A stretch of DNA of 35,748 nt from the NCBI GenBank assembly GCA_012519005.1, contig JAAYRB010000038.1, positions 1-35,748 of the forward strand, given 5' to 3'. Position numbers and translations under genes: made by a program. Below, piece by piece: positions 31,862-32,750 of this stretch. The DNA is from Clostridia bacterium (GTDB lineage: Bacteria > Bacillota > DTU086). Every line of letters begins with the position of its first letter. Within the stretch, counting starts at the first letter, position 1. The notes under the pieces were generated by a model that made no database searches, was not told the origin of the DNA, and was given only the letters and a program-made list of their open reading frames with translations.

Positions 31862-31946
31862 TGAAAAGGCAAACCTGCCGAAAGACAGGGACGCAAAGCT
31901 ATAGGGCCTTTCTACATAGAATAGAATGGTAGCCTGGCCGCCGGTA
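31862..31946 (+). promoter_or_regulatory. c-di-GMP-I (GEMM-I) riboswitch aptamer, copy 1
   Basis: GGCAAACC-TGCC-GAAA-GACA-GGGACGCAAAGC (31868-31899) matches the near-invariant GEMM-I core. A second hairpin follows, closing at GCCTGGCCGCCGG. Confidence 0.85.
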
Positions 31947-31980
31947 ATGAAAAAAATTAAATCAAACCGGAGGGATACCA

Positions 31981-32571
31981 ATGAGGTCAAAAGCAATGTT
32001 GAGTGTTTTACTGATTCTTTTAGCAGCAGCCTTGATAGGCGGAGCTACAATGGCATGGTTTACAGACAAGACAGATCTGGAGGCAGCGGAATTTACGGCG
32101 GGGACCCTGGAAATAAGTGCCGATGGACCAAATGAATCAGCTCTACCAGACAGACATGTTGATAATATCAACCCTGGGGACACAGTGACCGTATGCTGGG
32201 ATATTAAAAACATAGGAACAAAGAGAGCGGAACTTAGAGCACATCTGGATACGGAATGGTTAACTGCAGGTCTATCTAACGATGTATACACTTATGCTCT
32301 TCCTGCAGATAGCGATTGGGTTATTTATGAAGAGGATGGGAAGACATGGTTTAAATATAATGCTGGGCCCCTTGCAGGTACCTATGATGGGGATGGGGAT
32401 ACTGTCAAGCTGTGTGTGGAAGTAGTCTTCGACGGTCCAACAATGGGTAATGCTTTCCAAGGTGCGAAACTAGAAATCGGCGGTGAAGTAGAGGCTATCC
32501 AAACCACAAATGGTGCACCAGAAGCCGTATGGGGAGATGCATATGTTAACGCCGGTGGTGGCCAGTCTTAA
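31981..32571 (+). CDS. TasA-family fibre subunit with SipW-type signal peptide (paralog 2, core-only, 196 aa)
   Basis: LIGGATMAWFTDKTD...FTAGTLEIS...NINPGD...FQGAKLEIGGEVEAIQTTN parallels B. subtilis TasA (GGGTWAAFND...ASGTLDLS...NLKPGD...YQG...FSFEATQ). GGAGGG RBS. Confidence 0.85.
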   Translation: MRSKAMLSVLLILLAAALIGGATMAWFTDKTDLEAAEFTAGTLEISADGPNESALPDRHVDNINPGDTVTVCWDIKNIGTKRAELRAHLDTEWLTAGLSNDVYTYALPADSDWVIYEEDGKTWFKYNAGPLAGTYDGDGDTVKLCVEVVFDGPTMGNAFQGAKLEIGGEVEAIQTTNGAPEAVWGDAYVNAGGGQS

Positions 32572-32634
32572 TATAAGTGATCTGTTTGCTATGAAGACAG
32601 AGGAAATCTATAAAATTTCTGTGAATTTTAAAAA

Positions 32635-32664
32635 GTGACATAAATATCGATTGTTTCGTATAAG
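32635..32664 (+). promoter_or_regulatory. Candidate promoter firing directly into riboswitch copy 2
   Basis: GTGACA (32635-32640), 18-nt spacer, TATAAG (32659-32664). The aptamer core starts 6 nt downstream. Confidence 0.5.
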
Positions 32665-32750
32665 AAAAAGGCAAACCTGCCGAAAGGCAGGGACGCAAAG
32701 CCGCAGGGCCTTCCCCCATTCCTTTGGGGGATGGCAGCCTGGCCGCCGGT
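32664..32750 (+). promoter_or_regulatory. c-di-GMP-I (GEMM-I) riboswitch aptamer, copy 2
   Basis: GGCAAACC-TGCC-GAAA-GGCA-GGGACGCAAAGCC (32670-32702) has a perfect 6-bp GNRA-capped hairpin. The second hairpin is CAGGGCC...GGCAGCCTGG with an inner CCCCCA/TGGGGG stem. Confidence 0.9.

Follow-up and report, generated by a model that had tools for sequence, protein, structure and literature searches.

We describe two riboswitches of the c-di-GMP-I class (class I switches for cyclic diguanosine monophosphate) in a 35,748-nucleotide (nt) stretch of DNA from a Clostridia bacterium (contig JAAYRB010000038.1), analyzed at its full length and referred to below as the window. Each lies in the leader of one gene within a cluster that encodes a SipW-type signal peptidase and four paralogs related to the biofilm fiber protein TasA, with riboswitch 1 (RS1) ahead of paralog 2 and riboswitch 2 (RS2) ahead of paralog 3. 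We consider it likely that both are functional c-di-GMP-I switches controlling translation initiation of the next TasA-like cistron, most likely in the ON direction. The riboswitch class is a known one; we have not found its conserved association with TasA-like genes described, and its position inside an operon is unusual.

All 35,748 bases were scanned on both strands with Rfam cmscan against 4,227 families at gathering thresholds. Exactly two matches were returned in the whole window, both on the plus strand and both far beyond chance:

31859-31946, plus strand: RS1, a c-di-GMP-I aptamer (63.9 bits, E 5e-13)
32661-32751, plus strand: RS2, a c-di-GMP-I aptamer (66.7 bits, E 8e-14)

The best model at both sites is RF03167, with a gathering score of 59; the scan output keeps the best family per clan, and the scores of RF01051 itself are therefore not displayed. 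Two extra matches from clan CL00126 also passed their own gathering scores and were hidden by clan competition. A permissive Rfam scan of 31700-32900 added nothing beyond noise, and an independent covariance model, run over 28400-35748 with filters off and full dynamic programming, found no third or degenerate aptamer above 14 bits. In both copies the aptamer ends 30-35 nt ahead of the AUG of a SipW-dependent TasA-like gene, while neither the Rfam scan nor the filters-off model placed an aptamer ahead of paralog 1, paralog 4, sipW or the 550-amino-acid (aa) gene that opens the cluster. An earlier note on this DNA had proposed just this distribution, with one element ahead of each of two TasA-like paralogs and none at paralogs 1 and 4 or at a "TapA-like" gene, which is the 550-aa gene. 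Its core strings are present where it had located them, GGCAAACCTGCCGAAAGACAGGGACGCAAAGC at 31868-31899 in RS1 and GGCAAACCTGCCGAAAGGCAGGGACGCAAAGCC at 32670-32702 in RS2, and contain GAAA tetraloops at 31880-31883 and 32682-32685, respectively. Two of its terms need qualification. Its assignment to GEMM-I agrees with the clan matches above gathering scores and with a canonical binding pocket (see below), although the top family is RF03167 and not RF01051. Its word "tandem" does not apply in the usual riboswitch sense: the two riboswitches sit in separate successive leaders about 800 nt apart rather than together in one.

The association extends well beyond this contig. Scanning GTDB representative genomes with an alignment of the paralogs gave 32 related loci, nearly all from uncultured Clostridia, Syntrophomonadaceae, Dethiobacteria and other Bacillota, and in 24 of them an aptamer of clan CL00126, detected with Rfam, ends 30-75 nt upstream of a TasA-like open reading frame. 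Most often sipW comes first, followed by a paralog with a weak match, then the riboswitch, then the paralog that matches best and finally further paralogs that have no switch; one locus, L001, repeats the order of the window, with the 550-aa gene included. A sipW operon with one switch, placed between its first two TasA-like genes, is widely conserved and most likely the ancestral arrangement. Among the related loci, two riboswitch-preceded paralogs occur in the window only. Internal repeats in the window are spaced about 800-805 nt apart, which shows that a unit comprising a riboswitch and its gene was duplicated, and the two switches most likely arose by tandem duplication of that unit. The aptamers are 83-87% identical; the duplicated stretches next to them, mostly coding sequence, reach 71-77%.

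Class II c-di-GMP riboswitch matches were also seen in some of the related loci, with RF03169 (the GAG variant) scoring 41.1 bits at L015:1328-1411, about 76 nt upstream of a homologue of the 550-aa gene, and RF01786 scoring 58.1 bits at L026:2235-2317. Some lineages may also gate the head of the operon. At L024:1028-1347, the aptamer abuts a TasA-like coding sequence without its first ~9 residues, Shine-Dalgarno (SD) sequence and ATG, possibly as a result of deletion, as a pseudogene or as an assembly artefact.

The likely mode of action is suggested by complementarity between the 3' end of each aptamer and the ribosome-binding site downstream of it. The segments concerned are as follows, with pairing taken from folds of the full leaders and given as minimum free energy (MFE) structures and pairing probabilities (P):

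31938-31945, plus strand: anti-SD segment CCGCCGGU of RS1, pairing with 31966-31973 in the MFE structure (P at least 0.79 at the SD guanines)
31966-31973, plus strand: ACCGGAGG, the SD GGAGG (31969-31973) of paralog 2 with its 5' flank (AUG at 31981)
32743-32750, plus strand: anti-SD segment CCGCCGGU of RS2, pairing with 32766-32773 in the MFE and centroid structures (P at least 0.9)
32766-32773, plus strand: ACCGGAGG, the SD GGAGG (32769-32773) of paralog 3 with its flank (AUG at 32781)

The aptamer tail CCGCCGGU is made up of the base of P2, a linker carrying the equivalent of C92 and the 3' strand of P1, and it is complementary to ACCGGAGG. In the MFE structures of both full leaders, CC.CCGGU is paired with ACCGG.GG, and in the unconstrained ensemble the four SD guanines pair with the aptamer tail at P 0.79-1.0, mostly at least 0.9. 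With the aptamer held closed, four SD nucleotides out of five are unpaired in RS2, and three out of five in RS1, at a probability of at least 0.9. Neither direct examination of the sequence nor a terminator scan revealed a hairpin followed by a T-run between aptamer and AUG in either copy. The complementarity is maintained across the related loci through changes on both sides, with tail/SD combinations such as GGTA/ACC, GATT/AATC, GATA/TATT, GGTT/AACC and CATT/AATG. Over 25 leaders, the duplex between a tail and its own SD averages -8.37 kcal/mol, compared with -7.05 +/- 0.27 kcal/mol when tails are matched with the SDs of other loci, and none of 2000 permutations reaches the observed value, in a test that ignores relatedness among the loci.

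These features suggest a translational switch. Without ligand, the tail CCGCCGGU would pair with ACCGGAGG and hide the SD. The linker within the tail would supply the C to which one guanine of c-di-GMP pairs, so that on binding the tail would be locked into the aptamer and the ribosome-binding site released. The predicted polarity is ON, since the nucleotides engaged in ligand binding are those needed to mask the SD. High c-di-GMP would then lead to more paralog 2 and paralog 3, and the switch would have no bearing on the production of SipW, paralog 1 and paralog 4.

The terminator scan found no plus-strand terminators between the cluster genes, and 20 of 22 leaders are free of terminator-like hairpins from the preceding stop codon to the riboswitch; in L005 and L007 this gap measures only about 11-15 nt. 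On these grounds, the switches are probably internal to a polycistronic mRNA, each acting on one cistron. Two minus-strand "terminators" called at 31874-31889 and 32676-32691 were rejected as the aptamer hairpins in reverse, and a promoter-like GTGACA-N18-TATAAG ahead of RS2 was rejected because transcription from it would start inside the aptamer. The downstream limit of the unit is suggested by one further element:

34228-34252, plus strand: strong stem-loop with a 10-bp GC-rich stem, GCAGCAGGGG-GAACT-CCCCTGCTGC, 26 nt past the paralog 3 stop

A T-run begins about 12 nt past this stem on the same strand, and the transcription unit that contains the riboswitches probably ends at this stem-loop.

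The aptamer fold itself was assessed in an alignment of 26 TasA-associated aptamers, using the Rfam structure, slid controls and 500 shuffles. In this alignment the share of paired cells is 90.4%, and compensatory changes are seen in 11 of the 21 base pairs; the slid controls reach 22-46% pairing, and no shuffle matches the observed values. P1 is the weakest helix, at 65.8% paired. A GNRA loop caps the first hairpin in all 26 homologues, and it is GAAA in both window copies. The receptor region reads CCUUUC/GAAUGG and CCUUCC/GGAUGG in the window copies, which is not the canonical 11-nt motif. The two copies differ largely in ways that keep pairing, as the earlier note had observed: U-G alternates with C-G and G-U with G-C, and the only exception is the C.A mismatch that it had noticed in the first hairpin of copy 1, now placed at C31878/A31885 beside the GAAA loop. 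The perfect CCUGCC/GGCAGG stem and the added CCCCCA/UGGGGG helix that it had attributed to copy 2 are both present, the latter as an extension of the distal P2.

Several observations weigh against the interpretation of both elements as c-di-GMP-responsive translational switches. In addition to the relatedness ignored by the permutation test, the promoter scan returned 11 promoter-like sites where 13.3 were expected, leaving internal promoters unsupported. P1 is weak in both window copies (a single G-C pair and one or two A-U pairs, besides an A.G mismatch), so that ligand-dependent closure of the aptamer is assumed rather than evident. RS1 alone folds no better than shuffled sequence (-19.4 kcal/mol, z +0.55) and has the C.A mismatch in its tetraloop hairpin in this strain. 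Finally, the best Rfam model at both sites is the GGC variant, with the RF01051 scores masked by clan competition.

The strongest alternative is that these are real c-di-GMP-I aptamers that work in the OFF direction, or that act through transcription or RNA stability, for example via Rho-dependent termination or RNase access. We judge this improbable. Class I c-di-GMP riboswitches are known with both polarities and several mechanisms, and the ON polarity proposed here comes solely from thermodynamic modeling. The SD-complementary segment, however, lies within the 3' strand that the ligand stabilizes, making binding and masking mutually exclusive; closing the aptamer in the model brings up no other helix that would mask the SD, and an intrinsic terminator is absent. 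An ON switch would also fit the general tendency of c-di-GMP to promote matrix production. For the other polarity, one known example is Vc2, described as an off-switch affecting RNA stability (bioRxiv 10.1101/617340).

It is also highly improbable that RS1 is a decaying, non-functional duplicate, with RS2 as the sole active switch. This idea draws on the C.A mismatch, a weaker distal P2 and the absence of any folding gain over shuffles in RS1, compared with -43.5 kcal/mol and z -2.55 for RS2. Nevertheless, RS1 retains 63.9 bits and all pocket nucleotides, and it is RS1 that occupies the ancestral position after paralog 1. Further evidence comes from the nearest relatives of the window, three ENA metagenome contigs with 96-99% identity (98% for paralog 2), at least one of them from a biogas fermenter, in which both switches are kept. 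In these contigs, the 142-nt spacer upstream of RS1 has eight substitutions, and the 122 nt of RS1 and its platform have one. That sole change, A31885 to G, repairs the mismatch to C-G in all three, and two of the three carry A at the position equivalent to G32687 of RS2. Because C.A recurs in RS2 of two of these relatives and in the aptamer of L004, this position of the tetraloop hairpin appears to tolerate A.

As an observation in its own right, position 31885/32687 toggles between G (C-G) and A (C.A) in RS1 or RS2 among near-identical strains, and A is also found at L004:934-1018 in an unrelated species. It may be a tolerated or a tuning position, or the toggle may reflect gene conversion between the copies.

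The ligand-contact roles of G20, A47 and C92 have been described (PMC4744006, PMC5888326), and these nucleotides correspond to G31868, A31895 and C31941 in RS1 and to G32670, A32697 and C32746 in RS2. The 27-nt spacing from G20 to A47 and the GACGCA context are the same as in Vc2 and Vc1 of Vibrio cholerae, where G20-A47 of Vc2 is equivalent to G12-A39 of Vc1 at the same 27-nt spacing and the interhelical C36 of Vc1 lies three nt from the contact A39 (PMC4744006). An interhelical Watson-Crick pair, C44:G83, has been described as universally conserved in the c-di-GMP-I class. Both window copies contain the C of GGGAC and the G of an A-G bulge in the 3' strand of the second hairpin, each invariant in the 26 homologues; by sequence, and with G83 placed through the alignment, we map these two nucleotides to the positions of this pair.

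The RF03167 consensus (GACGCGAAgCc) has a G right after GACGC, equivalent to position A47, and this is its sole core difference from the window RNAs, both of which read GACGCAAAGC with A at that position. All 33 clan matches of the related loci, including 22 labeled RF03167, likewise have A at position 47, and the variant G47 occurs in none of the 35 aptamers of the window and related loci taken together. We take "GGC" to denote nucleotides 20, 47 and 92, a reading based on the RF03167 model consensus. Model R1, a covariance model for which nine RF01051 aptamers (by Rfam assignment) from leaders of other genes were used, recovers exactly the two window sites, with 56.7 bits for RS2 and 50.5 bits for RS1 (E 1e-13 to 1e-15). 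Given the canonical G20, A47 and C92 and the recovery of both sites by the RF01051-derived model, we conclude that both elements are, by sequence, ordinary canonical c-di-GMP-I aptamers. What they share with RF03167, apart from its being the best-scoring model, is a lineage-specific peripheral sequence (AGGGCC...GGCAGCCUGGCCGCC); the higher score is thus attributable to likeness in the peripheral helices and not to the nucleotide that defines the variant, the G at the A47 position, which they do not have. That these are c-di-GMP-I-GGC variants with an altered pocket, perhaps sensing a ligand other than c-di-GMP, is very unlikely: RF03167 exceeds its gathering score of 59 at both sites (63.9 and 66.7 bits) and is the top family there and for most TasA-associated homologues, but position 47 is A throughout, as in Vc2 and the RF01051-labeled aptamers, and G20 and C92 are canonical in both window copies.

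This points to a more general annotation pitfall. None of the 24 aptamers labeled RF03167 (two in the window and 22 in L001-L027) has the consensus G at position 47; clan competition labels the whole lineage c-di-GMP-I-GGC, and automated annotations of that variant may be inflated. A different pocket change was seen in two related loci, where A replaces G at G20 in the aptamers at L013:5857-5940 and L030:4349-4438 (AAAAAGCAAACC and AAAAGAGCAAACC, respectively), the change typical of GEMM-Ib variants that sense 3'3'-cyclic GMP-AMP (3'3'-cGAMP). The L013 aptamer lies ahead of a TasA-like gene, and that of L030, from Pseudoflavonifractor gallinarum, lies ahead of sipW and is followed by a terminator-like hairpin.

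The window RNAs share with the RF01051 riboswitches of V. cholerae (Vc2, and Vc1 upstream of gbpA) the three-helix aptamer, the GNRA-capped first hairpin, the GGCAAACC...GGGACGCAAAGC core, the ligand contacts G20, A47 and C92, and the C and G at the mapped C44:G83. They differ in their targets, which are SipW-dependent TasA-like fiber subunits, and in location, since the switch is embedded among the genes of a cluster rather than leading it. Vc1 is known to answer c-di-GMP dose-dependently (PMC4744006). The window P1 is also very short compared with canonical RF01051, and the second hairpin appears to be a near-regular helix with a U.U mismatch (CCUUUC/GAAUGG), whereas canonical members in the same loci have the tetraloop-receptor motif CCUAAG/UAUGG.

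Tandem c-di-GMP-I riboswitches have previously been found ahead of transglutaminase-like (yebA/COG1305) genes in Bacillota (PMC12452182; PMC9481103). These belong to the same class and occur in the same kinds of genomes as the window switches, and four of the related loci have such pairs 1-4 kb downstream of their TasA-like genes, ahead of secreted transglutaminase-core proteins:

L002:8752-9059, true tandem RF01051 pair
L003:10389-10642, true tandem RF01051 pair
L004:7352-7610, true tandem RF01051 pair
L027:6360-6678, true tandem RF01051 pair

In L003 and L004 each of the two aptamers is followed by a terminator-like hairpin with a T-run, and in L002 and L027 the first of the pair is. In contrast to these two-aptamer leaders, each leader in the window holds a single aptamer with an SD-sequestering platform, and the target gene is another one. 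The window itself ends before any transglutaminase-type gene could appear.

Riboswitch control of surface proteins has precedents in Firmicutes, including Bc2/cap in Bacillus thuringiensis and pilA1 in Clostridioides difficile, the latter through c-di-GMP-II. There, as predicted for the window, a riboswitch couples c-di-GMP to greater production of a structural protein of the surface or matrix; unlike the window switches, those use transcription antitermination at the head of the unit, and their targets belong to other protein families. The tapA-sipW-tasA operon of Bacillus subtilis is under the protein regulators SinR and AbrB, and the corresponding operon of Clostridium perfringens is likewise protein-controlled. 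The window cluster resembles B. subtilis tapA-sipW-tasA and C. perfringens sipW-bsaA (PMC7395162) in linking sipW to several SipW-dependent TasA-family paralogs, and differs from both in embedding second-messenger RNA sensors between subunit genes. In that study of the C. perfringens operon, riboswitch and c-di-GMP appear only in the reference list.

A literature search, with subscription papers mostly outside its reach, found no report of a c-di-GMP riboswitch linked to TasA, SipW or camelysin-type genes. TasA-type fibers provide Gram-positive biofilms with a major protein scaffold. Protein repressors control their production in the Bacillus model, with c-di-GMP taking little direct part. The arrangement described here would instead wire c-di-GMP to the translation of specific TasA-like subunits in a wide range of uncultured anaerobic Clostridia, Syntrophomonadaceae and Dethiobacteria, many of them from digesters. 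It offers a simple, testable link from second messenger to matrix protein and a natural example of cistron-specific control inside an operon.

It is plausible that second-messenger input is applied per subunit and sets fiber composition, a suggestion of the earlier note that fits the conserved placement of a switch ahead of only some paralogs and the unequal stability of the two aptamers (-19.4 versus -43.5 kcal/mol). A stronger form of this idea, which we regard as doubtful, is that the two switches are tuned differently, turning on paralog 2 and paralog 3 at different c-di-GMP thresholds and so setting the composition of a heteropolymeric TasA-like fiber. The much greater stability of the RS2 aptamer and the G/A polymorphism that toggles C-G and C.A in either copy could be invoked in its favor. 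If true, the short paralog 2 and the long paralog 3, with its InlB repeats, would be switched separately, and subunit composition, and hence adhesive properties, would be set by an RNA-level controller of per-cistron stoichiometry within one operon.

The cluster in which the switches lie, together with a more distant gene relevant to c-di-GMP, comprises the following:

17218-18417, minus strand: GGDEF diguanylate cyclase gene (PF00990, E 3e-44), about 13 kb upstream of the riboswitches
28941-30593, plus strand: first cluster gene, a 550-aa protein with an acidic, repetitive C-terminal half and no Pfam or NCBIfam match
30619-31197, plus strand: SipW-type signal peptidase I (TIGR02228, 126 bits against a cutoff of 51.85; NF046067 SipW, E 2.6e-40)
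31201-31716, plus strand: TasA-like paralog 1, 171 aa, no riboswitch (weak PF12389 and TIGR04090; 28% identical to paralog 2)
31981-32571, plus strand: TasA-like paralog 2, 196 aa, behind RS1 (PF12389, E 4.7e-13; TIGR04088)
32781-34202, plus strand: TasA-like paralog 3, 473 aa, behind RS2 (PF12389, E 1.3e-7; PF18998, E 4e-39, in three stretches)
34488-35468, plus strand: TasA-like paralog 4, 326 aa, no riboswitch (PF12389, E 5.9e-7)

Paralogs 2, 3 and 4 match the SipW-dependent signal peptide model TIGR04088 above its cutoff and are, by sequence, SipW-dependent proteins of the Peptidase_M73/TasA family. A sequence-profile search of PDB gave a non-significant match to TasA (E 0.3), so that the label "TasA-like" required a fold search: with an AlphaFold (AF2) model of paralog 2 (predicted local distance difference test score 83), the TasA fiber structure 8AUR was the sole PDB match at E <=0.001 (E 4.9e-5), with a template modeling score of only 0.48. 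Paralog 3 consists of an N-terminal TasA-like domain, 58% identical to paralog 2, and three InlB B-repeat (Flg_new_2) domains. The 285-nt leader of paralog 4 is preceded by the stem-loop at 34228-34252 and, from 34458 on, is homologous to the leaders of paralogs 2 and 3 (repeat D1). Exact-sequence look-ups of two window proteins gave no match. In most related loci the TasA-like genes have a sipW homologue upstream of them, and homologues of the 550-aa gene are found upstream of sipW in L001, L003, L006 and L015. The GGDEF gene indicates, as context only, that the organism can make c-di-GMP.

Two repetitive features were also seen in and around the cluster. The C-terminal half of the 550-aa gene (29900-30330) is extremely rich in D and E and is made up of imperfect repeats of 18-90 nt. 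A 22-nt purine-rich motif, GAAAGAAGGAARGGGGCAGRGG, occurs at 34278-34299 and 35535-35556 with 91% identity, about 70-75 nt past the stops of paralogs 3 and 4, and its second copy lies just ahead of a TTG-initiated open reading frame for a secreted protein that runs off the end of the window.

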